DNA of 64,000 nt from contig CAVSHR010000005.1 in NCBI GenBank assembly GCA_963727625.1, positions 64,001 through 128,000 of the forward strand. The letters run 5' to 3'. Below the pieces are notes generated by a model that had not been told where the DNA came from, did no database searches, and worked only from the letters and a program-made list of their open reading frames with translations. The stretch comes from an uncultured delta proteobacterium. GTDB taxonomy: Bacteria > Desulfobacterota > Binatia > UBA9968. Positions 43,871-59,287 of the stretch are shown piece by piece (within the stretch, counting starts at the first letter, position 1; each line of letters begins with the position of its first letter). Position numbers and translations under genes: made by a program.

Positions 43871-44184
43871 TTGTTTTTGCTCTTTGGCAACTCCATCGGC
43901 CATCTGTGGATTTTCATCCTGCTATTCACCACGGTTGAAGCGACCTATCCGGTCGCGTGGGCGATGGTCGGCGATATTTTCGGGCGCAAGCACTTCGCCA
44001 AGATTCGCAATTACATGAGCATGTTCTACGTCTGGGGCAGAGCGTTCTCGATCCAGTCACGGCCGGAGCGATTTGGGACCGCTGGCAAACTTACGAAACC
44101 ATGCTTTGGGTTTTGGTCGTCATGTTAAGTCTATCGGGAATTTTTTATAGCCTGCTCGGAAAGCCTTGGGCGCAATTAAAATAA
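43871..44184 (+). pseudogene. MFS transporter C-terminal remnant, frameshifted
   Basis: AMVGDIFGRKHFAKIR in one frame continues as SVLDPVTAGAIWDRWQTY in another; no N-terminal half. Confidence 0.75.
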
Positions 44185-44192
44185 ATTTAACT

Positions 44193-44289
44193 TCCGTTCA
44201 AGGGTCAAGGGTAAAAGTTCAAGGCTCGACGAAAAGTCTTGAGCAGCGATCCGACACTTTGAACTTTAAATTTTTGAACTTTGAACGGG
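44193..44289. repeat. Inverted 7-nt-period repeat element (GTTCAAG / TTTGAAC)
   Basis: ccgttcaagggtcaagggtaaaagttcaagg ... ctttgaactttaaatttttgaactttgaacgg. Confidence 0.75.
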
Positions 44290-44296
44290 CGTCGAT

Positions 44297-44617
44297 TTAT
44301 TTTACATGCACCGTGAGCCAAAGGGTTTCTGCGCCGGTTTGTGCGACTCGATGGCGCACGTGGCGCGGGATAACGAGGTAATCGCCCTCTTTCAATTCGA
44401 CGATCTCGCCGTCGGCGAATTCCAACACCGCGTTGCCGCGCAAGACGATCGCCCATTCATCTTCGTCCTGGTCGTACCAAAAGCCCGCGGGGCTGTTGTG
44501 CGAATGGGATAGGATGCGCTCGATTTTGACCGAAGAGTTTTGCCAAAGCGTCGAAAAATTTTCGCCGGCTGCGGCAGCGCCCAGATCGGTGTAAACATTT
44601 TTAACTGGAGCGGTCAT
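44297..44617 (-). CDS. Cupin domain protein
   Basis: KIERILSH, WYDQDEDEW, IPRHVRHRV. Confidence 0.88.
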   Translation of the reverse strand: MTAPVKNVYTDLGAAAAGENFSTLWQNSSVKIERILSHSHNSPAGFWYDQDEDEWAIVLRGNAVLEFADGEIVELKEGDYLVIPRHVRHRVAQTGAETLWLTVHVK

Positions 44618-44740
44618 AATCCTGATCGCGACGCCAACGGTCCCGTCACAAGCTGGCGGCCAGTCTTACCCACATCGCCAGTAAGACCAGGTTGCTAAGC
44701 GCAAAAAACAAAAAGCGCGGCGGAACTCTAATGAACACCA

Positions 44741-45427
44741 TCAGGGCAATGCGGCAGCGCCTTGGTCCATCCCCGCGGCGCGAATATCAGGCACTTCGAC
44801 GATGCGCCGCCGTCCGGGCATTGGCGCATGTTCAACGGCCCGGACCAAAGCCTGCGCCATTTCGTCGATAGTGACCGAGCCAAGCCGCTCAGCGGTCGCG
44901 CGGGTTATCGGAAACAGCTCGGCGAGCTTGTAGAATGACTTGATCAACAGCGGCCACTTCCGGCTCGGACCCAAAATAGACCAAGGGCGCAAGATTGTCG
45001 CGGTCAATTCCGCCTCGCGAATCATGGTTTCGCCAAGGGTACGCACCCAGAGATAGGACTGCATGAACGGCGCCGGCTGAGCGACGCTAACGTAGATCAA
45101 ATGCGCTGTGCCGCGGCGCTTAGCCGCACTCACGACGGCGCGAATTGAAACCAGATCGACCTTTTCAAACTGGTCGGCTTTGCTCGGGCTCGGATGCGCG
45201 GTGCCGACCAGATGAATCACCGCATCGATGCCGTCGAGGGCTGCAACCACGCACTCCGTGTCGAGCGCGTCGCCGAGCACCGGCGTCGCACCGGTGGGAA
45301 CACGCGCGACGGATTTCGCTCGGGCCAGCACTCGCACTCGATGCCCGCGATTCAACAACAGAGGAATCAAGTGGCGACCGATATAGCCGGTTCCTCCCGT
45401 AACTAGGACATTGAGCGGGGTGGGCAT
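44741..45427 (-). CDS. NAD(P)H-binding / SDR epimerase-like protein
   Basis: TGGTGYIG, ATILRP. Confidence 0.88.
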   Translation of the reverse strand: MPTPLNVLVTGGTGYIGRHLIPLLLNRGHRVRVLARAKSVARVPTGATPVLGDALDTECVVAALDGIDAVIHLVGTAHPSPSKADQFEKVDLVSIRAVVSAAKRRGTAHLIYVSVAQPAPFMQSYLWVRTLGETMIREAELTATILRPWSILGPSRKWPLLIKSFYKLAELFPITRATAERLGSVTIDEMAQALVRAVEHAPMPGRRRIVEVPDIRAAGMDQGAAALP

Positions 45428-45767
45428 ATTTTTCCAGTTGGAAGACTTGTCAAATTAACGCTCGCCGTACACTTTTCCGTATGGCAGATAACGCCTACTT
45501 TGTCACGTTCCTGTTCAGAGCGATCACAGAGTCGATCGCATCATAGCCTATTGCCTATTGCCGCTACGGAGAGCTTTGGCGCTTCGCCGAGCCAATTCAG
45601 CGAGGGGCCTCGATCGGAGAATGGAATGACCGCCTTTCGAATGCGATTTCTGGAGAACGACGCGCAGGCTGTGAGTAGATCATCTCCGGACCGGAATGTC
45701 AAAAAATTTGCCCGGTATTTTCTACTCCGTCGGTTGCAATAAACGGGTCATTCGATAGTGTAAAAAA

Positions 45768-47096
45768 GTGAAGTCCCTAGCCAAGCTGCGTAACGATGCG
45801 ATGAGCATTTATCACGCCGGCCTGAAGGCTGCCGATCCCGCCAGCGCTATTCTGCGCCACGTCAAGCTTGTGGGAGACCAACTCGAGGTCGGCGAAAAGT
45901 GCTATCATCTCGCTCAGTGCAGTGCCCTTTATGTGGTCGGTGCTGGCAAAGCATCGGCGCAGATGGCGCTGGCCATAGAACAGATTCTCGGCAACCGATT
46001 GAGCGGCGTCGTTAACGTGAAGTACGGCCACGCCGTAGCTCTCAAAGCCATCAAAGTCAACGAAGCCGGCCATCCGTTGCCGGACGACGCGGGAGTGCGG
46101 GGCACCCAGGAGATCCTTCGGCTTCTGCAGCACTGCGACGAACGAAGCTTTGTGGTCTTTCTGGTTTCGGGAGGGGGATCCGCCCTCCTACCCTGCCCGG
46201 CGGACGGTTTGACCCTCCAGGATAAGCAACGAACAACGCAGGTTTTGCTCGAATGCGGCGCGGCCATTCAAGAGATCAACGCCGTGCGCAAACATATATC
46301 CCGAGTCAAAGGTGGCCGGTTAGCGAAGGCGGCATACCCGGCGACGGTCGTGTCGCTCATACTTTCCGATGTCGTGGGCGACACTCTCGACAGCATCGCT
46401 TCCGGTCCGACCGTCCCCGACTCCAGCACATTCCCGGATTGTATGCGCGTAATCGAACGGTATCGCATTCAAGAAAAGATTCCGCCCGCTGTAAGTCAGC
46501 ATTTGCAGAGGGGCGCGAAGGGCGAGATCGAAGAGACTCCTAAACCTGGCGATCCGGCGTTTCAAAGAGTCCAAAACCTGATTGTCGGAAGCAACCGACT
46601 TGCGCTGAGCGCTGCGAAGGAGCAAGCGGAAGAGTTAGGTTACCACGGGCTGATCCTTTCCAGCCTTATCCAGGGTGAAACAAGAGAAGCGGCGGGTATG
46701 CACGCGGCGATTGGCAAAGAGATTCTCGAAACCGGCAATCCCGTTTCCCGCCCCGCCTGCGTCATCTCCGGCGGCGAGACCACCGTGACAATCCGCGGCA
46801 AAGGCCTCGGCGGCCGTAACCAGGAATTCGCCCTGGCCGCAGCCATCGGCATAGACGGCTCGCAAGGGATCGTCATGCTAAGCGCCGGTACGGATGGCAC
46901 GGACGGGCCCACGGATGCGGCGGGCGCGATCGTCGATGGCACTACACTGCAAAGAGCGAAAGACAAAGGGCTGGATCCCGAACGGCATCTAGCCGCCAAC
47001 GATTCGTATCATTTTTTTCAACCGCTTGACGACCTGCTCGTCACCGGTCCGACATTCACGAATGTGATGGATCTTCGGTTGGTGCTGGTGGAATGA
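45768..47096 (+). CDS. Glycerate kinase, class II (MOFRL/GckA-TtuD family)
   Basis: GAGKA, AGHPLPD, SGGGSAL, RKHISRVKGG, GGETTV, GGRNQE, GTDGTDG, TGPTFTNVMD. Confidence 0.93.
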   Translation: MKSLAKLRNDAMSIYHAGLKAADPASAILRHVKLVGDQLEVGEKCYHLAQCSALYVVGAGKASAQMALAIEQILGNRLSGVVNVKYGHAVALKAIKVNEAGHPLPDDAGVRGTQEILRLLQHCDERSFVVFLVSGGGSALLPCPADGLTLQDKQRTTQVLLECGAAIQEINAVRKHISRVKGGRLAKAAYPATVVSLILSDVVGDTLDSIASGPTVPDSSTFPDCMRVIERYRIQEKIPPAVSQHLQRGAKGEIEETPKPGDPAFQRVQNLIVGSNRLALSAAKEQAEELGYHGLILSSLIQGETREAAGMHAAIGKEILETGNPVSRPACVISGGETTVTIRGKGLGGRNQEFALAAAIGIDGSQGIVMLSAGTDGTDGPTDAAGAIVDGTTLQRAKDKGLDPERHLAANDSYHFFQPLDDLLVTGPTFTNVMDLRLVLVE

Positions 47097-47235
47097 GAGG
47101 GGAGTTTGGCGTCCCTCGGTGATCGCCGTCTTTTTGAGCGCATCAAGGGAGGGAAACGGAGCGAAATGAGTTGAGCTTCGTGAATTCATCGACCGCGGCG
47201 ATTGCCGCTGATTAGACTATCTTCTGGGGGATCAT

Positions 47236-47886
47236 GTGAAAATCAGACCGGTCCTTATGGTCGTGGACATGCAAAACGGCTTTTGCGGCTTGGGCGGGAC
47301 CTTCGACAAGTTCGGTTTCAACATCGCTCCCTACCGCGCGATCATTCCCGCTTTGCAAAACCTTATCGCCGAGATGCGCCGCTTCGGCATGCCGGTGTAC
47401 TACTCGAAAGCGATCCGGGAAAAGTCGGGCTTGGACTGCATAGACAGGGTCCATCGGATTATTCCCGAGAGCCGGCGCGAGCGAATCGAGAAACTGCCGC
47501 TCTGTATCCGCGGGACCTGGGATAGTGACGTCATCGATGAACTCCGACCCGAACCCAACGACTTCATCGTCGAGAAGAGACGGGATTCCGTTTTTCAGGA
47601 CACAGAGTTCGATCTCTGGCTCAAGGCTTTTCGAGCCGATACGGTGATCTTCTGCGGCATCGATACCTACGTATGCGTCGAGAGTTCGGTCAGGGAAGCC
47701 TTCAACAAAGGGTACGACGTGATCGTCGCAAAAGACTGCGTCGCGTCGCGAAATCCGCGGCACCACGAAACCTCCCTCGATCAAGTCGAAGAAGCTTTCG
47801 GGTGGGTTTTGAATTCCGCCGAGCTGATCGAAAAAATCCAAACCGGCCAATTCGTTGTATCATCGGACGAGGAGGCGTCGGCCTGA
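47236..47886 (+). CDS. Isochorismatase-family cysteine hydrolase (amidase-like)
   Basis: VVDMQNGF, EKRRDS, GIDTYVCVES (Asp-Lys-Cys triad). Confidence 0.9.
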   Translation: MKIRPVLMVVDMQNGFCGLGGTFDKFGFNIAPYRAIIPALQNLIAEMRRFGMPVYYSKAIREKSGLDCIDRVHRIIPESRRERIEKLPLCIRGTWDSDVIDELRPEPNDFIVEKRRDSVFQDTEFDLWLKAFRADTVIFCGIDTYVCVESSVREAFNKGYDVIVAKDCVASRNPRHHETSLDQVEEAFGWVLNSAELIEKIQTGQFVVSSDEEASA

Positions 47887-47936
47887 GAGATTGGGTTTCG
47901 GCGACTCACTAAACTATCGCGGGAAGGACAATCAGC

Positions 47937-49247
47937 ATGGCGATTAGAAAATACGATTCCGCTCTCAGGGAAAACGTCCACATGTGGGTCAATAAGATCA
48001 AGACCGTCGACGTTCTGGTGGGCATTCCCTGCTTTAATAACGAGGATACCATTGGATTCGTGATCGAGCAGGTCAGCCGGGGATTGGCCGAGCATTTTCC
48101 CGATCTGAACACCGCGGTGTTTGTCTCCGACGGCGGGTCGCTGGACAACACACGGGAGTACGCTTATCAAGCCGCCGGGCCTGAAAACGTGCAGCGGCGT
48201 GTTACCATTTACCGGGGCATGCCTGGAAAGGGCACCGCCTTTCGCGCGATCTTCGAAGTCGCCACGTTGTTGCGGGCCAAAGCGGTGGCCGTCGTGGATT
48301 CCGATTTGCGTAGCATTACGCCGGAATGGGTCAAACTGCTGATCGAACCGATCCTCAATAAATCTGCCGGATTTGTGGTGCCGTTTTACCGGCGCCACAA
48401 GTTTGACGGCACCATCACCAATCAAATCGTTTACCCGATGACCCGCGCCCTATATGGCGTTGACGTTCGCCAGCCGATCGGCGGAGATTTCGGCTTCTCG
48501 CCTGAGCTCGCAGCGTTCTATATGAAGGAGGATGTTTGGGACACTGACATCGTGCGCTTCGGCATCGACATCTGGATGACCACCTGCGCCATCAACGAGG
48601 GCTATCCGGTGGTTCAAACTTATTTGGGGACAAAGGTGCATGATGCCAAGGACCCGGCGGCCGATCTTGGCCCCATGTTCCACCAGGTGATCAGCACGCT
48701 TTTTTATCTCATGGGCAAGTACGACCGCAATTGGCGCCGAGAAAACACCCTTAAGTTGATTCCGGTAAATAGCAAGAAGGACAGCGATGCCGAGTTGGCG
48801 CCGATTTCCGTGAGTCTGAACAGCCTCCATACGGAATTCGTTGAGGGATTCAACCACTTTCGTCCCATCTACGAGCAGATTCTCAGCCCCGAGAACTACG
48901 CCGCACTGGCCGACATCCACAAGGCATGGCAAGCAAACCAAGACCGAGAGATTCAACCCGAACTGTGGAGCAAGGTCCTGTACGACTTCGCTTGCGTGTA
49001 TCAACTGTGGAACCGAAACCGGCGCCACTTGGTGGATATGATCACGCCGCTGTACTTTGGCCGCACCAAAAGTTTTTGTCAGCAGGTGATGGATATGAAC
49101 TATGCCCAGGCCGAAGAGATGGTTTTGGCGCAGGCTAAAGTGTTCGAGCAGAACAAACCTTATCTCCTGCGCCGCTTCGCTGAGTGGAAGGCGAAAGAAG
49201 CGGAGGAACAGAAAACGGAAATCGAGGCATCCATCACAGGGGCCTAA
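47937..49247 (+). CDS. Glucosylglycerate/mannosylglycerate synthase-like glycosyltransferase (single-step Ggs/Mgs type)
   Basis: GIPCFNN, SDGGS, PGKGTA, DSDL, YRRHKFDGTITN, RQPIGGDFG, FGIDIWMT, KVHD. Confidence 0.82.
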   Translation: MAIRKYDSALRENVHMWVNKIKTVDVLVGIPCFNNEDTIGFVIEQVSRGLAEHFPDLNTAVFVSDGGSLDNTREYAYQAAGPENVQRRVTIYRGMPGKGTAFRAIFEVATLLRAKAVAVVDSDLRSITPEWVKLLIEPILNKSAGFVVPFYRRHKFDGTITNQIVYPMTRALYGVDVRQPIGGDFGFSPELAAFYMKEDVWDTDIVRFGIDIWMTTCAINEGYPVVQTYLGTKVHDAKDPAADLGPMFHQVISTLFYLMGKYDRNWRRENTLKLIPVNSKKDSDAELAPISVSLNSLHTEFVEGFNHFRPIYEQILSPENYAALADIHKAWQANQDREIQPELWSKVLYDFACVYQLWNRNRRHLVDMITPLYFGRTKSFCQQVMDMNYAQAEEMVLAQAKVFEQNKPYLLRRFAEWKAKEAEEQKTEIEASITGA

Positions 49248-50260
49248 TCCCGCAACGGCAAGGCTATCGGCCCACGGGTCTCGGCCGAGCGATAGGCCGC
49301 AATCATGATTTCGAGCGCCGCCCGCGCGTCTGCCCCGGTGATTGCGGGCTCGTGATCTTCCTCGACGGCGGAAATAAACTCGTTGACCAACCAGCTTATA
49401 TCGGCGCGCCACCAGGGTACTCGCTCGCCCTTGCTCCCGTCGGCCAGTTCGAAATCATGATAGGGTTTGCTGATCAGAGCGGCTCCTTGCGTGCCCAACA
49501 CTTCAAAGCTTACGCTAAGCCAGGTCGGATTTCCCGCGGGGTTGGCCCAGCCGCTTTGCTGGGAAGCAACCACCCCGTTTTGAAATTCGATCAGCATCGT
49601 GCCGATATCGTCGAGATCGATGTCGGTGTGAATCATTCGGTCGATCCTGGCGTAGACACTTTTCGCTTCCGCTCCCGCCAACCAGCGCAGTGCATCGATG
49701 GCATGAATACCGATGTCGCCGAACCCCCCGAAGCCCGCCCGGGTCTTGTCGAAAAACCAGCTGGTGTCGAGCCCCGCAATACCACGGGGAATTTTGCCGT
49801 ACTTGGTCGCATGGATATGCTTGAGCTCTCCGAGCTCGCCCCGATCAATCAGTTCTTTGAGTTTTATCACCGGCAGCTGATAGCGAGGATTAAAGGGGAC
49901 CATCAACTTGACGCGGTGCTTGTGGGTGAGATCGAGGATCTTATCTGCGTCTTGCAGCGTGGTAGCCAGAGGCTTATCGCACAAGATGTGAATTCCCCGC
50001 GGCGCCAGCTCTTGGACAACACTGAGGTGTTGGTCGGGAGGGGTGCCGACGTAGGCGGCGTCAATCCTCTCTCCGTCCCGTAGCGGCCCGAGCGCTTCGA
50101 GATATCTTGCCCCGAACCGTGTGGCATCCTGCCGAGCGAGCGGCCGATTAAGTCCCGGAGCTACGATCGCCGCAAGCCGGGCCCGCGGATGTTCCGCGAT
50201 TGCTGGGACATAGCGCGGCAGGTGCGCATGGTCGTATCCAACGATGGCAAAATTCAGCAT
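49244..50260 (-). CDS. Gfo/Idh/MocA family oxidoreductase
   Basis: HILCDKP, GFGGFGDIGIHAID. Confidence 0.9.
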   Translation of the reverse strand: MLNFAIVGYDHAHLPRYVPAIAEHPRARLAAIVAPGLNRPLARQDATRFGARYLEALGPLRDGERIDAAYVGTPPDQHLSVVQELAPRGIHILCDKPLATTLQDADKILDLTHKHRVKLMVPFNPRYQLPVIKLKELIDRGELGELKHIHATKYGKIPRGIAGLDTSWFFDKTRAGFGGFGDIGIHAIDALRWLAGAEAKSVYARIDRMIHTDIDLDDIGTMLIEFQNGVVASQQSGWANPAGNPTWLSVSFEVLGTQGAALISKPYHDFELADGSKGERVPWWRADISWLVNEFISAVEEDHEPAITGADARAALEIMIAAYRSAETRGPIALPLRD

Positions 50261-51282
50261 GGTACGGCTCCCCTGAGCGCGACCGGTTGTCCGGTGGCGG
50301 CGGATTCGAGAGCTTTGGCGATTACTTCGACGGCGCGGTAGGCATCATCGAGAGTGATTCTCGGTGCGATCTTACGGGAGATACCGTCGATGAAATGGGC
50401 CAACTCGCCGACAAAGGCTTCAGGATATGTGCTGAGCAGCGGCGAGTATCGCGGCACCTCGGGTCTCTCTTTAATCACCAGCAGCGGCGCGGAGTCATGG
50501 TCCGTGAGCGTCAGTTTTCCTTTGGTCCCAATAATTTCGAGCGAGGAATAAAACGGGGCATATTCTTTAGGGTGCGCCCAGCTCACCTCCATGAGCCCTT
50601 GCTGTCCCTTGGAAAAGCCGACTTGCACGAGCGCAAAATCGAGGCAGCCTTTCTTGCGCGCCTCTGCGCGCACCGAGAGACCTTTCGTGTACACTTCGGT
50701 AGCGTCCGAATCGAAAAACCACGCGAAAAGATCGGCGACATGGACACCGAGATCCATAAGCACGCCGCCGTTGTGCGGATCCCACCGCCAGCTGTCTTCG
50801 GCGAATCCCGCCCAGCTGCGCTCGCTCCAGTGCATAGAGACCGGTTCGCCAATACGACCGGCTGCAAGTTGCTCTTTCACCCCGACCCAGCGGCGGTCGA
50901 AGCGGCGGGTGTGGCCGATGTAGAGATGGCGGCCGGATTCTTTGGCCGCCTCGATCATGCGCGCGGCATCCTCGATCTTCAGGGCCATGGGTTTTTCACA
51001 GATGACATGCTTGCCGGCGCGCAGCGCTTTGATCGCCAGCTCCGCATGGCTGGGATGAGGCGTGCAGATGTCGACGAGATCGATACCATCGCTGGCCAGC
51101 AGCTCATCGAGGGAAGAAAAAGACTTCGTGATACCCAGCTCCGCCCTGGCCTGATCCGCCCGTTCCTTGATGATATCGCAGGTCGCGATCACCCGCGCCT
51201 GTGGAATTTGCCGCCAGGCGGGGGCGTGCGCTAGGCGGAAGATACCTCCGGTGCCGAGAATCGCGACCTTGAGATCGTTCAT
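50254..51282 (-). CDS. Gfo/Idh/MocA family oxidoreductase
   Basis: GTGGIF, GKHVICEKP, GGVLMDLGVH. Confidence 0.92.
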   Translation of the reverse strand: MNDLKVAILGTGGIFRLAHAPAWRQIPQARVIATCDIIKERADQARAELGITKSFSSLDELLASDGIDLVDICTPHPSHAELAIKALRAGKHVICEKPMALKIEDAARMIEAAKESGRHLYIGHTRRFDRRWVGVKEQLAAGRIGEPVSMHWSERSWAGFAEDSWRWDPHNGGVLMDLGVHVADLFAWFFDSDATEVYTKGLSVRAEARKKGCLDFALVQVGFSKGQQGLMEVSWAHPKEYAPFYSSLEIIGTKGKLTLTDHDSAPLLVIKERPEVPRYSPLLSTYPEAFVGELAHFIDGISRKIAPRITLDDAYRAVEVIAKALESAATGQPVALRGAVPC

Positions 51283-52892
51283 TGAGCTAGGCCCTTCGCT
51301 TCGCTCGTGCCGTCGAAAATGTGAATCTGGTGTTGACGGGTGATCTCGACCAAGAACGCGGCCATCTCCGGAGTACCGTATTTTTCTTCCAGGTAACGAT
51401 AATTGCTGCCGTAGTCAGTTACCGAGATATCGGGCACTTCGCGGCCGGAAAAATGCTTTTCAGCTAGAGATTGAATGATGGCGGGAATCGCGCTGCCGTC
51501 CTGAGCCCGGACCTTTTCGCCTTTGGCGATAAAGGGCGGGACCCCCTGCCGCAGGGCGAATTCCCGATGCACCCACTTGCGCACCGCGTCCTCGGCGTCT
51601 TTGACCTTGAGCCGAGGCGAAATCTGCATGGCCGTGCGGATGACATCCCGATCCAAAAACGGAGCTCGCAGCTCGATGCTGTGCGCCATAGTCATCCGAT
51701 CCTCCCGCTCCAAAGTGTCCAGATATAATTGGCTGATGTCCTCCCACATGCGCTTATGCAGAGTCAGGTGGCCGTGCTCGGCGACGACGTTGCAGTACCA
51801 GGAATAACCACCGAACAGCTCGTCCGCACCCTGCCCGCTCAATAAAACTTTATGGCCGTCCGCAGCGGCCATTCTCGCCGCCAAGAACATCGGCACCGCC
51901 GCTTCGACCTGTACCATGCCGTTAAGCTCAATGGCTTCGATGACCGCGGGCAGCACATCCTCAACGACCTCGTCGCTGAGGTAAGTCGTCCGCAGAGGAA
52001 TATTCATTAGCTCTGCGGACTGTGTCGCGTTCTCCACGTCCAGAGAGCCGCGCACACCGGCGCAGTAACCGGTGACGTCGACGCCGCGGTTCTTGACCGC
52101 CTTGGCGACCAGGGTGCTGTCAACTCCGCCCGACAGCAACACCGCTGCCCGGTTCAGTCCAAATACCCGCTTATCCATCGCTCGATCGAAGACGATACCG
52201 TACTCGCGGATCGCGCTTTCCATATCGGTCAAGCGGATCGCAGATTCCTCGACCCGATAGCCTTCTTGCACTGAAATGCGATTGCAGTCGACGATAAGCA
52301 TATCGCCGGGATGAAGCCTCTCGATTTCACGGCCCGCTCCCCTGAGCGCTTTGGGCTCAGAAGCGAAATAGAACGGAAATCCCTCAACGTAATAGACCGG
52401 CTTCTTGCCGACGGGATCGCGGGCGACGACAACACATCTCCCGTCCGTCACCGCAAAGGCGTACATCCCGTCGAGCAGCGGCATGGCCTGCTTCACGGCC
52501 GCGGGCAGATCTCCCTGATAAAACTCCTCGATCAAATGCACGAGTATTTCGCTATCGCTATCCGTGAGGACGCGGTGATGCGCGAGCAGCTGGCGCAGTT
52601 CGCGGTAATTGTAGATTTCACCGTTGTGGATGAGCGACAACTTTCCATGGCAGGAAGAAAGCGGCTGCAATCCCGTCGGACCGCCGACGATTTCGAGCCG
52701 GGCGTGACCGAGACAAATCATGCCGGTGCGCGGCGGCTTGGAAATTTGCGACAATCCTTCTCCCTGTTCGATTCTCCCATCGACGTATAAGCCCACCGCG
52801 TCCGGCCCGCGGTGGCGGGTCTGAGTGAGCATGGACAGAGCCTCTCCAACATTCCTTGGCCGCTTATCGACAAAACCGATAATCGAACACAT
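51279..52892 (-). CDS. Asparagine synthetase B-like glutamine amidotransferase
   Basis: N-terminal (M)C, HRGPD, HNGEIYN, LSGGVDS PP-loop, GQGADELFGGY, ELRAPFLD; AAGGAGG RBS. Confidence 0.92.
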   Translation of the reverse strand: MCSIIGFVDKRPRNVGEALSMLTQTRHRGPDAVGLYVDGRIEQGEGLSQISKPPRTGMICLGHARLEIVGGPTGLQPLSSCHGKLSLIHNGEIYNYRELRQLLAHHRVLTDSDSEILVHLIEEFYQGDLPAAVKQAMPLLDGMYAFAVTDGRCVVVARDPVGKKPVYYVEGFPFYFASEPKALRGAGREIERLHPGDMLIVDCNRISVQEGYRVEESAIRLTDMESAIREYGIVFDRAMDKRVFGLNRAAVLLSGGVDSTLVAKAVKNRGVDVTGYCAGVRGSLDVENATQSAELMNIPLRTTYLSDEVVEDVLPAVIEAIELNGMVQVEAAVPMFLAARMAAADGHKVLLSGQGADELFGGYSWYCNVVAEHGHLTLHKRMWEDISQLYLDTLEREDRMTMAHSIELRAPFLDRDVIRTAMQISPRLKVKDAEDAVRKWVHREFALRQGVPPFIAKGEKVRAQDGSAIPAIIQSLAEKHFSGREVPDISVTDYGSNYRYLEEKYGTPEMAAFLVEITRQHQIHIFDGTSEAKGLAQ

Positions 52893-53595
52893 GGGCTGAC
52901 GCCTCCTTGTTTAATCGTTGGCAGATCAAGGTGAATTTATTCGTAATCATGATCTTTAGGGGAAGAACCCGATAGCGTGCGATAATCAGGCGTAAAAAAA
53001 TTCAGGGCTTTTCTCACTTCCGGAAAAACAGCGCCGGAACGGGAAAAGCCCTGAAATAATTTTTTAGAAACTAATTCACGAGACCTTTTTAAGCTAACAT
53101 CTCGACTCTGGCCTGTCAAACTAAACATCCTTCGAGTCGTGGCTCAGTTTGAGCGCACCGAGCAATCCTTTTGTCACAAACGTTGCACCGCGGATTCGAT
53201 CCTGAGCCCCACCGGAAGACCCCGAATGACAAAGAAGGCGAACCGTCGTTTCGAACTCTTCGATCGGGACACAGGGTAAACTTCATGGGCGAGCTTGAAC
53301 TAACTCAATCACGAGTATCCCTCGCCGCGACGCCGCGGCATTTCAAACATCTCCGCAAGGCAGATTACGTTGCTGCAGAGCCGCAGCTTCAACGCCGCCG
53401 AGAAACAAATTTTGCGCGATCGCGCCGTCGTTTTTTTCTTCTTTCAGGTTGTATAAACCCAGGCGATTAAATATAACCGATGAAGAAACTTCTTTGGCCG
53501 TGCGTCGCAGACGTTTCCGTCTATTTATTCCTCGCTGTTGCATTTATCGGGTACAGTGCCTGCGCCGCAAATCAGGCGGCATCGATGGATGATCC

Positions 53596-55458
53596 ATGGA
53601 ACTGTTTAAGAAGATTCTCATTCCTCTGACCGGTCCCGACCAGGTTTTGCCGTACTTCAAGCTGGCGGCGGCGCTGCTGCCGCCGGAGGGAAAAATTTTG
53701 GCGCTCGGCGTCGTGCGGGTTCCGGAAGAAAACTCCCTCAGTGAGGGAGCTGAAGAGGCGCTGCGCTTTCGGGCAACCCTGGAAGAGTGCAAACCGCAGT
53801 TTCCGGACGAACGGGTCGAGTTGAAAACAATCGTGCGGGTGACTCACCATCTCTCCGAAGGAATCGCGGAAACAGCCAAGCAGGAGTCCTGTGATCTTTT
53901 GTTGCTGCCCTGGAAGGGCTATGCCGCTTCGCAAGAACATCTCTTCGGGGCGACGATCGATCGCTTGCTCGATCAACCCCCGTGCGCGATCGCGGTTGTG
54001 CGATTGGAAGGATTCGCGGAGTGTCGCAATATCCTTCTTCCGGTTCGCGGCGGGCCTTATGCGGAATTCGCCCTCGCGGTCGCGAGTGGCCTGGCTCAGT
54101 CTTTGGGCGCTGAAGTAACCGTGCTGCATTGCGAGACAACATTCTCTGAAGCAGAAATCGAGGATTACCCTTATCGCTCGTTTTTGCACAAACTGCGGGG
54201 CCATCCTCAGGTCAGACGGCTGCTTACCGTTCAAGGCGATCCGAAGCATGCGATCGTCCAAGAAGCAAAAAGACATGACATGGTCGTGGTCGGTGCGGGC
54301 GCGAGCACCGAGCCGACCGCTTCGTTTTTGGGTCCGGTCGTGGAGCGGATCGCAATCGAGTCGCAGACACCCCTGCTCGTGATCAAAACGCCGGGCTCTC
54401 TCAAGCCGTGGCTGCGGCCAGAGCATGACTTGGGCAGTCGGCCCAAACCTCTGTCCGAAAGGGTGGACAAATGGTTTGCCGAAAACACTTTTCATCGCGG
54501 CGAGTTCAACGATCTGCAAAAACTGGTGGACCTTAAGCTTAAGCAACAATTGACCGTTAGCCTTGGCTTGCCTGCTTTGAACGAAGCGGAGACCGTGGGA
54601 AGGATCATCGGCACTATCAAAAAAGCCCTTGTGGACGAAGTACCGCTGTTGGACGAAATTGTCCTGATTGACTCCCGTTCCACCGACGATACCGTCGCGA
54701 TTGCCCGCGATCTTGGCATCGACGCCTTCGCGCATCAGGACATTCTGCCGCAGTACGGGGAGAGACGAGGCAAGGGTGAAGCTTTGTGGAAGAGCCTCCA
54801 TCTGCTCAAGGGCGACCTGATCGTTTGGATCGACACCGACATCAAGAACATTCACCCGGGCTTCGTCTACGGTATCCTCGGGCCACTCCTGACGGAACCG
54901 GAAATCCAGTACGTCAAAGGTTTTTATCGCCGCCCGATCAATGTCGGGGACAAAACCTACGCGGAAGGTGGCGGGCGCGTCACCGAGCTTACGGCCCGGC
55001 CGCTCTTCAATCTCTTTTTTCCCGAACTATCGGGAATCATCCAGCCGCTGGCCGGCGAATACGGAGGGCGCAGGTCGGTGCTCGAACGGGTTCCTTTTTT
55101 TGTCGGATACGGCGTCGAGACCGGCCTATTGATTGATCTTTTCAGTCAGTACGGCCTGCAGGCAATTGCTCAGGTCGATCTAGAAGAGCGCATCCACCGT
55201 AATCAGTCTCTCCCAGCGCTGAGCCAGATGGCGTTTGCGATCATCCAGGTGTTCATTCAGCGGCTTGAGGAAAAGAACCGGATCAAGTTGATGGAAGAAG
55301 TCAATCAAAGTATGAAGCTCATCCGGCACAAAGAATCCACCTACGCGCTCGACGTCAAAGACATTCGAGACCAGGAGCGTCCGCCGATAATTTCGGTTCC
55401 AGAATACCGTGAGCAACGCCGGCAATCGTCCGCCGCCGGAGGCGCCACGCGCATTTGA
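53596..55458 (+). CDS. gpgS: Glucosyl-3-phosphoglycerate synthase fused to two N-terminal universal stress protein (USP) domains
   Basis: FKKILIP and NILLPVRGGP USP repeats, then LPALNEAETVG, DSRSTD, GKGEALWKS, DTDI, GGGRVTELTARP, QPLAGEY, HRNQ. Confidence 0.88.
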   Translation: MELFKKILIPLTGPDQVLPYFKLAAALLPPEGKILALGVVRVPEENSLSEGAEEALRFRATLEECKPQFPDERVELKTIVRVTHHLSEGIAETAKQESCDLLLLPWKGYAASQEHLFGATIDRLLDQPPCAIAVVRLEGFAECRNILLPVRGGPYAEFALAVASGLAQSLGAEVTVLHCETTFSEAEIEDYPYRSFLHKLRGHPQVRRLLTVQGDPKHAIVQEAKRHDMVVVGAGASTEPTASFLGPVVERIAIESQTPLLVIKTPGSLKPWLRPEHDLGSRPKPLSERVDKWFAENTFHRGEFNDLQKLVDLKLKQQLTVSLGLPALNEAETVGRIIGTIKKALVDEVPLLDEIVLIDSRSTDDTVAIARDLGIDAFAHQDILPQYGERRGKGEALWKSLHLLKGDLIVWIDTDIKNIHPGFVYGILGPLLTEPEIQYVKGFYRRPINVGDKTYAEGGGRVTELTARPLFNLFFPELSGIIQPLAGEYGGRRSVLERVPFFVGYGVETGLLIDLFSQYGLQAIAQVDLEERIHRNQSLPALSQMAFAIIQVFIQRLEEKNRIKLMEEVNQSMKLIRHKESTYALDVKDIRDQERPPIISVPEYREQRRQSSAAGGATRI

Positions 55459-56306
55459 ACACCGCGCACCTCATCGTTATCACCGACCTCGATGGCACCC
55501 TTTTGGATGCCGATAGCTACCGGTACGACGCCAGCTTGCCGGCCGTGCGCAGACTTCAGGCGCTAGGAATCCCTCTCATCCTCTGTTCGAGCAAGACGGC
55601 GAGCGAGATCAAACGTTTGCGGCGGGAGTTGGGGCTCAGAGATCCGTTCATCTGCGAAAACGGCGGCGCCGTGTATTTTCCAAAAGGCTATTTCCCCTTT
55701 CCCGTCGCCGACGCGAAAGTTCAAGGAGATCTGGAAACGATCGCCCTCGGAACGGAAATCACAGTCCTGCGCCGCGCGTTGAAAGAAAGCATCCATGGCC
55801 TGACCCTGCGCGTTCGCTCCTTCGGCGAGATGAGCGTCGAGGACGTTTCGCAATTGACGGGACTTCCAAGGGAGCAGGCCTCATTGGCCCTGCAGCGCGA
55901 GTATGACGAGCCGTTTACCCTTGAAGGCAAAGACTCGGAGCGGCTGTTCGCGGTTCTCCGAAGCAGAGGCTTGCCCGTGACCTTTGGGGGGCGACTGTAC
56001 CATCTGACCGGAGGACACGACAAAGGTCACGCGGTGAGACGGCTTCACGCACTCTATCGCAAGCTCGATCCCGCTTGCGTCAGCGTGGGACTTGGCAACT
56101 CGGCGAACGATCTGCCGCTGCTTCGGGAAGTCGATCGTCCGATCCTGATTCGAAACGCCGATGGGTCCTATGACAAAGACGTGCTACGGGCGATGCCGCA
56201 GGTCGACAGACCGCTGGAGCGCGGCCCCGTTGGCTGGAGCGCGGCTATCGCGAAAATTCTCGCCGAAAACGAGCCGCAAGGCAGAACAAGCCAACCGGAA
56301 AAATAA
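55455..56306 (+). CDS. Glucosyl/mannosyl-3-phosphoglycerate phosphatase (HAD IIB)
   Basis: TDLDGTLL, CSSKT, ENGG, REYDEPF, GGRLYHL, DKG, GNSANDLPLL; translationally coupled to gpgS. Confidence 0.9.
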   Translation: MNTAHLIVITDLDGTLLDADSYRYDASLPAVRRLQALGIPLILCSSKTASEIKRLRRELGLRDPFICENGGAVYFPKGYFPFPVADAKVQGDLETIALGTEITVLRRALKESIHGLTLRVRSFGEMSVEDVSQLTGLPREQASLALQREYDEPFTLEGKDSERLFAVLRSRGLPVTFGGRLYHLTGGHDKGHAVRRLHALYRKLDPACVSVGLGNSANDLPLLREVDRPILIRNADGSYDKDVLRAMPQVDRPLERGPVGWSAAIAKILAENEPQGRTSQPEK

Positions 56307-56489
56307 GCTTGAGAACTCCGACGGTAACAGCGCATAACAATCCGTCTCTTTTTCAAAGCGAATCTCGGTTGGCGCATTTTCAACGACTCGGCCGAATTAG
56401 AATACGCCGCGCCAATCCCGGAAAGTATCGTATCGCACCGCCCCTATATCAACTTCGGCAGGCCGTTGTTCTGCGGTTCGTAGCCGGGA

Positions 56490-56750
56490 GCTTCCTTGCG
56501 GCGCCGATGGCGCCGCCGATCTATTGATCGTACCACTTCGTGCCCACCTCCTCGTTGTACCATTTCACCTGCTCGGTTCCGTCCGCGGCCTGATCCTTGA
56601 CCGACTCGTCAAATCGCCGCACGTTGGTTTCCACTTGCGGTTCGGCGGTAAAGCTTCGTCCGCGGGCTTGTTCCAGGTACCGTCGAAGCACAAAACGACT
56701 CTCTTCCTGGCAAAACCTCTTCGTCGGACTAGTTTACTTTTTCGCGGCAA
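56490..56750 (-). pseudogene. DUF2235 (alpha/beta-hydrolase, Tle1-like) N-terminal remnant
   Basis: KRVVLCFDGTWN, then a frameshift to ETNVRRF...QVKWYNEEVGTKWYD and a stop. Confidence 0.75.
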
Positions 56751-56896
56751 CTCATGCGACCACCGCGGTCGGTAGCGACCCGCAGCTCAGCTGCGACTTA
56801 TCGACGCAGCTTCGTTATCCGGACCAATGGTTTTCCCGAGCTTCGCAGGAAAGCGACAATTGCGATTGGACGCGAGCGCTCCGGCCAGCCGATTAA

Positions 56897-58597
56897 TCAG
56901 GCGAACCACTGCTTTTGCTTGAGGATATATTCCGCCGTGCGATAGCTCAACGCCGCCACCGTCGCCGTCGGCGGATAACCGGCCATGGTGGGAAACACCG
57001 ATGAGCCGACGATAAACAGATTCGCAATATCATGAGTCTGGCAATATTCGTTAACCACCGAGTTTTTCGGCTCGGCACCCATCCGGGTGCCGCCGGCCCA
57101 GCGGTTGGGACGGCCTTTTTCCTCAGTCCACACTTTGCTTGCACCGGTCGCCTTCATGATCTTCTCGCCGACGCCGGCCATGAATTTTTGCAAACGCCGC
57201 TCGTTCTGGTGGAACTCGAACGTAACTCTGGGCAACGGCAAACCCCAGCGGTCGCGATGACGTGGGTCGAGGTCGACGCGATTGTTGGGGTGCGGCAAGG
57301 TTTCCGGCTGCATGTTGAGATCCATCGTCCGACTGTAGTAGCGGGTGAAAAATTCTTTGAACTCTCTGCCCCAGGGCCGGACGTCGGGCGGCAACACATC
57401 GATTCTCGTCACCGGCGAGCCGTCACCGCTGGTGCCAATGGTACCGCCGCGAATGAAGCCCACCCCGGTGTGATCGAAGTTGTTGCCGTTGAAGTCGTCG
57501 ATGCGCATCGCCGCCGACCCCGGTCCGATGAAACCGTTGATGATGTAATCGTCGAATACACCCATGGCGCGCACATCACCGTGCGCCAAAATGTTGCGGC
57601 CGACGTAACCGCTGCTGTTGGCCATGCCTTTGGCAAATCGGCCTCGACCCGTCTTCGACAGCAGCAACAGACGCACATGCTCGAAAACAAAAGCGCTTAA
57701 GATGACCACCCGGGCTTGCTGTTCGTGCGGCCGGCCGTCGGCGTCGAAATAACTCACCCCCGTCACCTGCCCGTTACCATCGCTATTGATATGATAAACT
57801 TTCGCTTTAGTTTTGAGATCGAAATTACCGGTCTCAAGCGCCACAGGGATGACGGTATAAAGGGAAGCTGATTTGGCGTGGACATGGCAGCCGTAGAAAT
57901 TGCAATGGCCGCAGTAGACGCACGCCGGCCGCTCGGGAATGCGCGTGTCGAACGGCTCGGGCGGTCGATAAGGTTGGGAGAGAATACCAGCGGAAGTGTC
58001 GTAAGCGTGATAGCCCAATTTCGCGCATGCCGCGGCGAACAGCTTCATGCGTGCCGAGTGGCGCAGCGGCGGCAGCGGAAAACCGCGCTTGCGCGGCCCG
58101 GCGAACGGATTGGCCCCGGCCACGCCGGATACGCCGAACTCCCACTCAAATCGCTCATAGTAGGGTTCCAAGTCGTCGTAGCTGAGAGGCCAATCGATGA
58201 TATCGTAACCAGATAAATCCGCTCCGGCGCGCGCGGCGTTGCCGTTTTCAACCTCGTTGGTGAAAAGCTTGAAGTCGCCCGGCATATAGCGCGACGACTG
58301 TCCGGTCCAGTGCAGCAATGCGCCGCCGAGCACATTGAGCGGGCTGGTGCGATACTGCACTCTGGTCTTTTCGTCGGCCTTGCTCCGCGTCGTGGTGGGT
58401 TCGTCGCGCACCCACTCCAGCTGTTCGGGGCGGATAAGAAAACGAATCGAATCGCGCGGCGCGTAGTCTTCATGCTTGGGCGCTGGCCCGCGCTCGAAGC
58501 CTACGACCTTCAACCCGGCCGAGGCAAGTTCCTTCGCCATGATTCCACCCAATCCGCCAACGCCGACAATGCATACATCCGCGATTGTTTTGCTCAT
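56897..58597 (-). CDS. GMC family FAD oxidoreductase (gluconate 2-dehydrogenase alpha-like)
   Basis: GVGGLGG, LGGALLHW, CVYCGHC...C, GGTRMG, PPTATVAAL. Confidence 0.92.
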   Translation of the reverse strand: MSKTIADVCIVGVGGLGGIMAKELASAGLKVVGFERGPAPKHEDYAPRDSIRFLIRPEQLEWVRDEPTTTRSKADEKTRVQYRTSPLNVLGGALLHWTGQSSRYMPGDFKLFTNEVENGNAARAGADLSGYDIIDWPLSYDDLEPYYERFEWEFGVSGVAGANPFAGPRKRGFPLPPLRHSARMKLFAAACAKLGYHAYDTSAGILSQPYRPPEPFDTRIPERPACVYCGHCNFYGCHVHAKSASLYTVIPVALETGNFDLKTKAKVYHINSDGNGQVTGVSYFDADGRPHEQQARVVILSAFVFEHVRLLLLSKTGRGRFAKGMANSSGYVGRNILAHGDVRAMGVFDDYIINGFIGPGSAAMRIDDFNGNNFDHTGVGFIRGGTIGTSGDGSPVTRIDVLPPDVRPWGREFKEFFTRYYSRTMDLNMQPETLPHPNNRVDLDPRHRDRWGLPLPRVTFEFHQNERRLQKFMAGVGEKIMKATGASKVWTEEKGRPNRWAGGTRMGAEPKNSVVNEYCQTHDIANLFIVGSSVFPTMAGYPPTATVAALSYRTAEYILKQKQWFA

Positions 58598-59121: not shown

Positions 59122-59287
59122 CGGCGCGTTGAATCTCCTGTGCGAAGTTGTCCTTCCTCCATAGCAGAAATCGGCAGCAAAAAGGTAGCGGTAGCCGAGC
59201 CCGACCATCTACCCTAGACGCAATCAACTCGTTGCCTGCGGATAAATTTAAAAACAGGGAATGATTACGGCAAGTCCGTCATGATGT

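Follow-up and report, generated by a model that had tools for sequence, protein, structure and literature searches.

Organization of the island

The window, the whole 64,000-nucleotide stretch of DNA analyzed here, contains an island combining genes for glucosylglycerate synthesis with an amidotransferase and an amidase. The positions proposed in the earlier note for the nine genes of the island were reproduced by an ORF and family check, and the features are collected in Table 1. The convergent stop ends of GT2b and GfoA share 4 bases (49244–49247), and overlaps were also observed within the operons, namely 4 bases for AsnBl/GfoB, 7 for GfoB/GfoA, and 4 for GpgS/GpgP. The 703-base spacer between the divergent AsnBl and Usp-GpgS genes gave no Rfam match at E <= 0.1, and a 99-codon ORF within it (53171–53470) matched no family among Pfam and NCBIfam-type models. 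No transporter gene is present inside the island.

Table 1. Coordinates of the island features within the window.
Feature	Description	Coordinates	Strand	Basis
GlyK	Glycerate 2-kinase-like, MOFRL family; first in the GlyK-ISO-Ggs operon	45768..47096	+	Pfam DUF4147 299 bits, MOFRL 147 bits
ISO	Isochorismatase-family cysteine hydrolase, putative glycosylglyceramide amidase	47236..47886	+	Pfam Isochorismatase 156 bits
GT2b	Ggs-like GT2/GT81-related glycosyltransferase, candidate single-step glucosylglycerate synthase	47937..49247	+	Pfam GT2
GfoA	Gfo/Idh/MocA oxidoreductase; closes the AsnBl-GfoB-GfoA operon	49244..50260	-	Pfam
GfoB	Gfo/Idh/MocA oxidoreductase	50254..51282	-	Pfam
AsnBl	AsnB-like glutamine-dependent amidotransferase, putative glucosylglycerate amidotransferase (glucosylglyceramide synthase)	51279..52892	-	Pfam GATase_7 + Asn_synthase
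Spacer	AsnBl/Usp-GpgS divergent spacer, 703 bases, presumed promoters	52893..53595	.	Coordinates
Usp-GpgS	Usp-Usp-GpgS fusion: glucosyl-3-phosphoglycerate synthase, GT81 type, two N-terminal universal-stress domains	53596..55458	+	PRK13915
GpgP	MPGP-family HAD-IIB phosphatase, glucosyl-3-phosphoglycerate phosphatase	55455..56306	+	TIGR01486

Glucosylglycerate synthesis genes

Comparison of Usp-GpgS with the model PRK13915 gave 386 bits (cut-off 262) over residues 288–601, and Usp was matched in two stretches. This was the only GpgS found in its own genome, while the six other GT81 GpgS frames of the phylum sample were 329–359 aa long and therefore without the Usp fusion. GpgP reached 235 bits against TIGR01486 (cut-off 165) and 240 bits against TIGR02461, just below the cut-off of 244. 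GT2b scored 71 bits against the PRK13915 GpgS model, under the cut-off, and its solved relatives were GpgS enzymes only (50 bits; 7 matches at E <= 0.01). An Mgs (GT78)-like identity was rejected, since no Mgs chain occurred among these matches, and the 'Mgs-like' label that had been attached to the glycosyltransferase was wrong. GT2b was considered Ggs-like because several homologues carry the JGI name 'glucosylglycerate synthase' (four, at 88, 70, 68, and 57% identity). Ggs-like genes clustered with GpgS and GpgP could also be found at loci L107/L118, L147, and L160, and in the unclassified hot-spring bacterium HR37. MPGS was not found in the genome carrying the island, and glucose rather than mannose is therefore the predicted sugar.

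The gpgS, gpgP, and Ggs genes of Persephonella marina reportedly form an operon. A dual glucosylglycerate pathway, consisting of GpgS/GpgP plus Ggs, has been described for this bacterium (PMC3736172). GpgS, GpgP, and a Ggs-type transferase likewise occur together in the window, which additionally includes the amidotransferase, amidase, Gfo pair, and GlyK. Its GpgS also differs from that of P. marina, being a GT81-type enzyme that carries two fused Usp domains.

The AsnB-like amidotransferase

AsnBl has the two-domain build of E. coli AsnB (PDB 1CT9) and human ASNS (6GQ3), an N-terminal Cys glutaminase followed by a PP-loop ATP pyrophosphatase, and the same chemistry, carboxyl adenylation followed by ammonia transfer, is expected of it. 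It differs from both enzymes in its genomic partners, which are osmolyte genes and amidases. AsnBl scored 304 bits against TIGR01536 (cut-off 267), 268 bits against the AsnB-specific model PRK09431, below its cut-off of 499, and only 108 bits against E. coli AsnB itself. Six AsnB-type paralogues are encoded in the same genome, five with TIGR01536 scores of 484–531 bits and the sixth with 251 bits, and AsnA was not found in this 98.45%-complete genome.

In the tree, AsnBl fell into a 48-row clade (SH-aLRT 100) that included neither E. coli AsnB nor any of the six own-genome paralogues. The earlier note had proposed amidation of the glycerate carboxyl by this enzyme, and the grouping did not refute that proposal. 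Catalytic motifs were intact: C1, R49, N74, E76, and D98 of E. coli AsnB, which we take to be the glutaminase site, were retained together with the SGGxDS loop in 43–48 of the 48 clade rows. Five positions presumably lining the aspartate site of E. coli AsnB were changed across the clade: T322 to Q (47/48), R324 to E (46/48), E348 to Q (48/48), K376 to D (48/48), and D384 to T (47/48). The E348-to-Q change is not clade-specific, because it was also present in 39/39 rows of the neighboring clades and formed part of the retrieval pattern. These comparisons indicate that AsnBl is something other than a housekeeping asparagine synthetase.

The AsnO-Ngg pathway produces N-acetylglutaminylglutamine amide (NAGGN), and there too an AsnB-like amidotransferase neutralizes an osmolyte carboxyl to give an amide solute. 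AsnBl reached 156 bits against the AsnO model TIGR03104 (cut-off 570), and AsnO-Ngg differs in its dipeptide substrate and in having no amidase or glycosyltransferase partner.

The isochorismatase-family amidase

The closest solved relatives of ISO were RutB (88 bits) and biuret/triuret hydrolases. ISO has the isochorismatase fold and the Asp-Lys-Cys triad (D11, K114, C147) in common with RutB, BiuH, and N-carbamoylsarcosine amidase, and the other residues shared by 18 or more of the 19 family members were also kept. Scores fell far under every equivalog cut-off (RutB 111 vs 378; BiuH 99 vs 370), and the genomic context is new relative to these three enzymes. ISO was the most frequent AsnBl neighbor, at 20 of the 48 clade loci. 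The partner amidases belong to two unrelated folds, ISO at these 20 loci and a CN-hydrolase at 5, which never occurred together in one locus.

Conserved neighborhood of the AsnBl clade

A glucosylglycerate (GG) or mannosylglycerate (MG) gene was located within 6 kb of AsnBl at 13 of the 48 clade loci, an amidase at 25, and either of the two at 36, compared with 0/39 loci of the neighboring clades, although the reference proteins were picked after the loci had been viewed and many loci are closely related. The linkage of AsnBl to glycosylglycerate genes and an amidase, noticed previously in the window, could be observed again and again in many lineages, and this check likewise did not refute the earlier proposal. 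Four kinds of synthase that are not orthologous to one another accompany AsnBl: GT81 GpgS (window, L046), Methanococcoides-type GpgS (L011, L023, HR37; NF040724 372 bits), Ggs-like (window, L009, HR37), and MPGS (L036, L038, L039, L040, L044; PF09488 534 bits). The common denominator of these four types is the glycerate moiety, and the glycerate carboxyl is the sole carboxyl of GG or MG.

Only 8 of the 201 phylum genomes had a member of the AsnBl clade. MPGS occurred in 3/201, and every copy (3/3) directly adjoins an AsnBl. Genome-level co-occurrence was weak for GT81 GpgS and the Ggs-like family, because 5/7 GT81 GpgS genomes of the phylum sample had no AsnBl and the Ggs-like family was present in 95/201 genomes. 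Among carrier genomes in which no synthase adjoins AsnBl, 5/5 had both a Ggs-like gene and GpgS paired with GpgP, located elsewhere in the genome in four and in the same supercluster in HR37. The HR37 supercluster contains all eight island gene types within 16.6 kb in a different gene order, with ISO located inside the GpgS-GpgP operon and mechanosensitive channels interspersed.

GlyK scored 242 bits against the NCBIfam glycerate 2-kinase model, under the equivalog cut-off of 550. An orthologue (63%) is present in the HR37 cluster, and GlyK adjoins Ggs-like genes in 6/29 sampled loci of the phylum; it may act as a glycerate recycler. The nearest solved relatives of GfoA were sugar-ring oxidoreductases, while GfoB reached 192 bits against the IolG model (cut-off 355). 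GfoA directly follows GfoB at seven loci (L009, L011, L012, L017, L021, L022, L024), and a Gfo orthologue was found in 2/5 carrier genomes, adjoining AsnBl both times. The two Gfo genes are optional additions to the island; they may epimerize or cleave the sugar, as the earlier note proposed.

Proposed pathway and alternative explanations

The best reading, to which we assign a probability of roughly 0.6 on sequence grounds, is that AsnBl amidates the glycerate carboxyl and ISO reverses this reaction. Glucosylglycerate would be produced by two routes, one in two steps by Usp-GpgS and then GpgP, the other in one step, in which the Ggs-like transferase would use free D-glycerate. Amidation would presumably follow glycosylation and dephosphorylation: AsnBl would use ATP to adenylate C1 of the glycerate, the only carboxyl of GG, and ammonia from glutamine would then be transferred to the adenylated C1, yielding the uncharged solute glucosylglyceramide, from which ISO would remove the amide again. 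For AsnBl relatives adjoining MPGS, mannosylglyceramide would be the product. The core of the earlier reading, glycerate-carboxyl amidation with an amidase partner, is backed by comparative genomics because of the distinct clade, the five changed positions, and the recurrent linkage; its 'Mgs-like' transferase was the part that did not stand. The sugar-type transporters recurring beside AsnBl and the mannosylglyceramide of Rhodothermus marinus, both described below, also speak for the best reading. Among the points against it are the weak genome-level co-occurrence and the failure to find glucosylglyceramide described as a natural product. A synthase and a reversing amidase in one locus would also constitute a futile cycle unless regulated, and ISO is co-transcribed with biosynthetic genes in both the window island and HR37.

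It is rather unlikely that AsnBl acts earlier, on D-glycerate, 3-phosphoglycerate, or the phosphorylated glycoside, with the transferases and phosphatase processing the amide to the same end product and ISO removing free glyceramide or a mis-amidated intermediate. Such an order would fit the position of AsnBl between a GpgS-like gene and a phosphatase at L046, its location downstream of MPGS and a HAD phosphatase in archaeal-type loci, and the flanking of ISO in the window by GlyK and the Ggs-like transferase, both handlers of free glycerate; against it, GpgS and MPGS require the carboxylate of 3-phosphoglycerate. A breakdown role is unlikely. External glycosylglycerate or its amide would be imported, de-amidated by ISO, and cleaved at the glycosidic bond after oxidation of the sugar ring by the Gfo pair, with GlyK feeding glycolysis and AsnBl being a passenger or merely re-amidating the imported solute. 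Sugar-type transporters, a YidK-like SSF symporter or a MalE-like ABC system, do recur beside AsnBl (within 6 kb at 11/48 clade loci), GH38 mannosylglycerate-hydrolase-like genes occur at L028 and L068, a pyruvate kinase lies between Ggs and GlyK in HR37, and GfoB resembles DgpA glycoside 3-oxidoreductases (119–122 bits). However, the window island lacks a transporter and encodes three enzymes of biosynthesis, namely GpgS, GpgP, and the Ggs-like GT2b, and AsnBl directly adjoins MPGS in all three MPGS genomes of the phylum sample. Moreover, an amidotransferase consuming ATP and glutamine would be out of place in a breakdown system, and this enzyme is more constant than any other member.

The GG/MG gene was absent within 6 kb at 23 of the 25 amidase-bearing clade loci, which would suit a different target carboxylate, for instance a small solute or a nucleotide-sugar acid, with the linkage reflecting only a shared stress regulon. 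This appears quite improbable given the synthesis genes in 5/5 carrier genomes tested, the ISO gene inside the GpgS-GpgP operon of HR37, and the four unrelated synthase types adjoining AsnBl across lineages. A functional asparagine synthetase that is only co-regulated with stress genes would be in keeping with the TIGR01536 score above the cut-off and the failure to find AsnA, but it is very improbable considering the low PRK09431 score, the altered positions that presumably line the aspartate site, the separate clade, the six further paralogues (five of them high-scoring), the restricted distribution in the phylum, and the pairing with amidases and glycosylglycerate genes.

No paper was found that names an amidating enzyme for the conversion of mannosylglycerate to mannosylglyceramide, and no description of glucosylglyceramide as a natural product was found in the literature searched. 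Two homologue searches gave no Rhodothermus protein among the best 120 matches listed, which weighs on neither side. Mannosylglyceramide is a genuine, salt-favored solute of Rhodothermus marinus (PMC1224877). This one organism contains both a negatively charged glycosylglycerate and the corresponding uncharged amide, the same pair of states as proposed here. The window brings both known glucosylglycerate routes together in one island with an AsnB-like enzyme and an amidase. If AsnBl amidates the glycerate carboxyl and ISO reverses it, the cell could switch its solute from anionic to neutral and back, with nitrogen being stored or released.

Gene content and layout of the island

The ORF list, together with Pfam and NCBIfam scans, bore out every gene that an earlier note on this DNA had named. 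The AsnB-like amidotransferase gene (AsnBl) and the genes of an oxidoreductase pair (GfoB and GfoA) form a tightly coupled minus-strand operon, with overlaps of 4 and 7 bases, which converges on the genes for a glycerate-2-kinase-like protein (GlyK), an isochorismatase-family cysteine hydrolase (ISO) and a Ggs-like transferase (GT2b). A 703-base spacer separates AsnBl from the divergent Usp-Usp-GpgS gene. The Rfam scan of positions 44000-58000 of the window (E <= 0.1) revealed no RNA element, the spacer included, and a 99-codon ORF in the spacer had no family match in Pfam or NCBIfam. A look for sequencing runs containing this DNA listed no RNA run, and the DNA runs shared at most 0.16 of the words. 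The flanks of the island consist of genes for an MFS transporter, DAHP synthase, a cupin, an SDR, a GMC oxidoreductase with its small subunit, a LOG protein and a CLC channel, and nothing was seen tying these genes to the island. The GMC oxidoreductase lies directly after the phosphatase gene GpgP on the opposite strand; its combination with a Gluconate_2-dh3-type small subunit is a layout typical of periplasmic sugar or glucoside dehydrogenases.

Genes of the island and an adjoining flank gene, with positions in the window
Feature	Position	Strand	Length (aa)	Remarks
GlyK (DUF4147 and MOFRL)	45768-47096	+		Glycerate 2-kinase models 242 and 208 bits, under their cut-offs
ISO, isochorismatase-family	47236-47886	+		Pfam 156 bits
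GT2b, GT2-type transferase	47937-49247	+	436	
GfoA	49244-50260	-		Stop end overlaps that of GT2b by 4 bases
GfoB	50254-51282	-		Same operon as AsnBl and GfoA
AsnBl	51279-52892	-	537	
Usp-Usp-GpgS fusion	53596-55458	+	620	PRK13915 386.3 bits, cut-off 262, residues 288-601
GpgP, MPGP-family phosphatase	55455-56306	+		TIGR01486 234.6 bits, cut-off 164.75; overlaps GpgS by 4 bases
GMC oxidoreductase with Gluconate_2-dh3-type small subunit	56897-59208	-		

The AsnB-like protein compared with asparagine synthetases

Alignment against E. coli AsnB (Cys = 1) revealed that C1, R49, N74, E76 and D98, which we take to be the glutamine/glutaminase site, were kept in the window AsnBl and in 43-47 of the 48 rows of its clade. 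The PP-loop SGGxDS and the Mg/ATP residues S234, G235, G236, D238, S239, D351 and K449 were likewise kept in 47-48 of these rows. Five other positions, which presumably line the aspartate and acyl-adenylate site of AsnB, were replaced: T322 by Q (47/48), R324 by E (46/48), E348 by Q (48/48, a change that is not specific to the clade because it was also found in 39/39 rows of the neighbouring clades and was part of the retrieval pattern), K376 by D (48/48) and D384 by T (47/48).

AsnBl passed the broad TIGR01536 model (303.6 bits against 267.1) but did not reach the AsnB model PRK09431 (268 against 499), and its match to E. coli AsnB was only 108 bits. It also differs from AsnO of the NAGGN pathway, scoring 156.5 bits on TIGR03104, where the equivalog cut-off is 570.1. 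AsnBl does not group with AsnB in the tree, as its clade excludes both E. coli AsnB, the sole characterised reference, and the paralogues from the same genome. Six further AsnB-type genes (L001-L006, on contigs C4, C5, C8 and C11) could be found in this genome, which is 98.45% complete and in which AsnA was not found. Five of the paralogues (635-696 aa) scored 484-531 bits on TIGR01536, while the sixth (617 aa) stayed under the cut-off with 251 bits; three of the six occur on contig C11 within about 50 kb. Judged from its sequence, AsnBl is not an ordinary AsnB.

Predicted glycosylglycerate synthases of the window

The GpgS of the window passes the curated PRK13915 cut-off, as expected for the two-step glucosylglycerate (GG) pathway, and is coupled to an MPGP-family phosphatase, the putative GpgP, that also passes its family cut-off. 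Two N-terminal universal-stress-protein domains are fused to this GpgS; the other six GT81 GpgS frames detected in a sample of 201 genomes of the phylum are not fused, since they are only 329-359 aa long. The fusion may confer direct stress or nucleotide control on the synthase.

GT2b had been described in the earlier note as a "Ggs/Mgs-like" transferase, and only the Ggs half of this description could be retained. Its solved relatives were GpgS enzymes only (50 bits) and, faintly, MpgS (20 bits), NCBIfam gave only a weak GpgS match (71 bits), and homologues at 88, 70, 68 and 57% identity were named "glucosylglycerate synthase" by the JGI automatic annotation. A GT78 Mgs chain was absent among the seven PDB sequence matches to GT2b at E <= 0.01. 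An identity with MggA was rejected as well, since MggA is described in PMC3736172 as a 530-aa GT4 enzyme. GT2b adjoins a Methanococcoides-type GpgS and an MPGP-like gene in L107/L118, L147, L160 and the genome HR37. In P. marina, gpgS, gpgP and the Ggs gene reportedly form an operon.

Recurrence of the linkage in the clade

Scanning one genome per species with a sequence pattern gave 56 matching stretches and, from these, 16 loci. In metagenome contigs the matching stretches numbered 599, of which 537 encoded a relative; the best 80 of the 537 were taken. Nineteen reference proteins were then sought by tblastn in 96 loci and the window, and the neighbour counts rest on these matches, not on ORF calls. 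A quick maximum-likelihood tree (LG+G4) was constructed from 94 rows, namely 87 loci rows of at least 430 aa, the six paralogues and E. coli AsnB; ten shorter loci (L021, L023, L024, L059, L063, L080, L086, L092, L094 and L104) were left out. The window AsnBl fell in a clade of 48 rows with an SH-aLRT of 100, which grew to 55 tips, with a support of 100, when further carriers from the phylum were added. Close homologues of AsnBl (71-92% identity) bear names from Verrucomicrobiae, Binatia, Terriglobales and Methylomirabilia; a Rhodothermus protein was absent from the best 120 matches of two homologue searches, which is no evidence either way.

Within 6 kb of the AsnB-type gene, the clade loci carried a GG or mannosylglycerate (MG) gene in 13/48 cases, an amidase gene in 25/48 (ISO in 20 and a CN-hydrolase in five, never both), either of these in 36/48, a sugar-type transporter in 11/48 and the Gfo pair in 6/48, compared with 0/39 for each in the other clades, although these counts overstate independence because the reference proteins were chosen after the loci had been seen and many loci are close kin. 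Twelve clade loci lacked both a GG/MG gene and an amidase; in eight of them the contig measures about 4 kb at most or stops at the gene. The linkage of an asnB-like gene to GG/MG genes, for which the earlier note had suggested looking, therefore recurs outside the window's genome.

The 39 outside rows (L057-L066, L089-L103 and others) lie in archaeal housekeeping-like contexts, with homoserine dehydrogenase, ApgM, CTP synthase, adenylosuccinate lyase and a deacetylase as neighbours. The PP-loop is kept in these rows, while the glutaminase nucleophile is often missing: Cys is present in 19/39 and R49 in 4/39. Directly after the AsnB-like gene, and convergent with it, a protein of about 280 aa (f9) could be detected by tblastn in nine archaeal-type loci, e.g. 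L052:4343-5185 and L047:6785-7624; it had no Pfam or NCBIfam match.

The partner synthases of the clade belong to four non-orthologous types. The GT81 GpgS type is present in the window and in L046, which has the order GpgS-like gene (PRK13915 166 bits), AsnBl, HAD-IIB phosphatase and SSF symporter. A Methanococcoides-type GpgS (NF040724 372 bits, full length) with an MPGP-like phosphatase occurs in L011 and L023, both from Methylomirabilia, and in HR37, and the Ggs-like type in the window, L009 and HR37. In L036, L038, L039, L040 and L044, the MG-pathway synthase MPGS (PF09488 534 bits) lies directly upstream, often with a HAD-IB phosphatase, and the other neighbours in these loci (PurP, endonuclease dU) have an archaeal look. 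Further, AsnBl is followed in L068 by MPGP (217 bits against 165) and then by the start of a GH38 mannosylglycerate-hydrolase-like gene, and a full-length gene of the latter kind (282 bits) is present in L028.

The locus L009, recorded as an uncultured Syntrophobacter MAG, shares its island genes with the window at 84-93% identity, and its flanking cupin, DAHP synthase and MFS genes at 64-84% identity in the window's gene order; the next-best AsnBl relatives are named from other phyla. Either the L009 contig has been binned or labelled wrongly, or its source is closely related to the window organism.

Carrier genomes and the phylum sample

Five carrier genomes (G001-G005) have no synthase gene next to AsnBl. 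None of the five contained MPGS or a GT81 GpgS over the cut-off, while all five contained a Ggs-like transferase (49-69% identity) and a Methanococcoides-type GpgS (54-59%), each of the latter followed by an MPGP-like gene. These genes lie away from AsnBl in four of the five. The GpgS of G003, a Thermodesulfobacteriota MAG, is divided between two frames (162 and 254 aa; G003:C9:135017-136220; L124, L125), which points to a frameshift, a pseudogene or faulty assembly.

In the fifth genome, HR37 (G005, unclassified Bacteria from a hot spring), the synthase genes belong to the same supercluster as AsnBl, a 19.9-kb stretch (L177, G005:C2:173500-193400) of three gene groups. The first, on one strand, consists of GT2b', ISO (71%), GpgP and GpgS; the second of MscS, Ggs (69%), pyruvate kinase, GlyK (63%), TerC and an MscS-like channel; the third of AsnBl (54%), GfoB (50%), GfoA (56%), SSF and a protein termed f13. 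All eight island gene types thus occur within 16.6 kb in a different order, with ISO inside the GpgS-GpgP operon, and the mechanosensitive channels fit an osmolyte role. Beyond the supercluster (L177, L017) lie genes for a class-III aminotransferase and a TldD/PmbA pair; a keto-sugar produced by the Gfo pair is a possible substrate of this aminotransferase. Seven of the 97 sources searched carry the f13 protein (about 210 aa) after the SSF symporter or, in L016, after ISO (e.g. L019:5415-6050, L016:12472-13125, L017:15403-16026); it had no Pfam or NCBIfam match, and its Atlas clusters, from Thermodesulfobacteriota and Verrucomicrobiota, were all unnamed.

An even sample of the window's phylum, 201 genomes in all, included eight genomes with the AsnBl clade; for the same class the count was 0/5. 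MPGS was present in 3/201, with AsnBl directly adjoining every time, and in the other four non-window carriers the gene was adjoined by a CN-hydrolase (three) or a sugar-binding protein (one); the tree placed all seven non-window carriers inside the clade. GT81 GpgS was detected in 7/201 genomes, only two of which had AsnBl. GG-makers often lacking AsnBl is what would be expected if the amide is an optional extra. The Ggs-like family occurred in 6/8 AsnBl carriers and in 89/193 other genomes, and this co-occurrence was rejected as evidence because the family is too common (95/201).

Proposed functions of the island proteins

The intact glutaminase and adenylating sites, the replaced aspartate-site positions and the recurrent linkage to synthases are best read as those of a glycosylglycerate amidotransferase, and the glycerate moiety, the only one common to the four synthase types, points the same way. 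AsnBl would amidate the sole carboxyl of GG or MG, which is on the glycerate. The product here should be glucosylglyceramide, since searches of the window's genome revealed no MPGS and no other GpgS, and the MPGS-linked relatives would make mannosylglyceramide. The core proposal of the earlier note, that AsnBl amidates the glycerate carboxyl, is supported to the extent that comparative genomics allows. AsnBl would be a new functional variant in the AsnB superfamily, set in a known osmolyte pathway.

The nearest kin of ISO were RutB and the biuret and triuret hydrolases, and each residue of its Asp-Lys-Cys triad (D11, K114, C147) was shared by at least 18 of the 19 family members. These features make ISO a cysteine hydrolase of the amidase type rather than a true isochorismatase. 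In the L029-L033 group, a CN-hydrolase takes the place of ISO, with a MalE-type sugar ABC transporter coming next, and two unrelated amidase folds in one position point to a shared role in C-N hydrolysis. That ISO or the CN-hydrolase would reverse the amidation is tentative, with chances slightly under even, because a locus that encodes both a synthase and the enzyme opposing it must be regulated, and because ISO shares its transcript with biosynthetic genes.

The Gfo pair is confined to the window's sub-lineage (window, L009, L011, L012, L017, L021, L022 and L024), always directly after AsnBl or before SSF, and GfoA orthologues occur in exactly the two of the five carrier genomes where they adjoin AsnBl. 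The pair may epimerise the sugar by redox chemistry or may begin an oxidative cleavage. The nearest solved kin include inositol dehydrogenases, anhydrofructose reductase and levoglucosan dehydrogenase beside DgpA, and, as the scores show, the likeness is at the superfamily level only (IolG 113-192 bits against 355; BT_2158/2159 25-39 against 650-750; DgpA 60-122). Any specific role assigned to the pair is unlikely to be the right one. Of the 29 phylum loci L135-L163, six have GlyK next to a Ggs-like gene, and free D-glycerate is a substrate common to GlyK and Ggs; GlyK may drain or balance the free D-glycerate pool.

Taken jointly, the genes could form a widespread reversible charge switch, in which the AsnBl clade makes glucosyl- or mannosylglyceramide, a dedicated amidase reverts it and the Gfo pair of the window's sub-lineage remodels the sugar of the amide. 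As a whole this is doubtful. The switch would extend over soil archaea, ANME-1, Verrucomicrobiota-like bacteria, Methylomirabilia, Binatia, Thermodesulfobacteriota and others; its amidase, a cysteine hydrolase or CN-hydrolase, would tie osmotic charge balance to nitrogen status, and the sugar remodelling would yield a third solute.

Relation to known solutes and significance

Mannosylglyceramide was reportedly first described in the late 1990s. It is a real solute of R. marinus that replaces the anion at high salt, according to the consulted part of a 2005 review (PMC1224877). Full-text literature searches found no paper naming an enzyme that makes it, and the portions consulted of PMC1224877, PMC6240254 and PMC5488096 named no gene for the amidation. 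The gpgS/mggA gene-organisation tables of PMC3736172 may list some of the loci. Searches combining mannosylglycerate or glucosylglycerate with asparagine synthase, synthetase or amidotransferase gave nothing relevant by title, and "glucosylglyceramide" had 0 occurrences in a full-text search on glyceramide variants. A genome paper on soil ammonia oxidisers mentions MPGS and, in the part seen, not the partner gene (PMC4084955).

AsnBl and its relatives are a specific, clonable candidate for the mannosylglyceramide enzyme, with the amidase as a likely antagonist. The window contributes the glucosylglycerate context with the predicted sister solute glucosylglyceramide, of which the literature searched held no description, the amidase as the commonest companion of AsnBl, the Gfo add-on and the eight-gene recurrence in HR37. 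In the consulted text of PMC6240254, the neutral amide differs from the acid in protein stabilisation, and a gene for its biosynthesis is therefore of practical use. The clade is present in ecologically important, hard-to-culture organisms, including archaeal-type soil loci, ANME-1 and anammox-related lineages, so that present-day predictions from genomes of which osmolytes they make, and at what expense in nitrogen, may be wrong.
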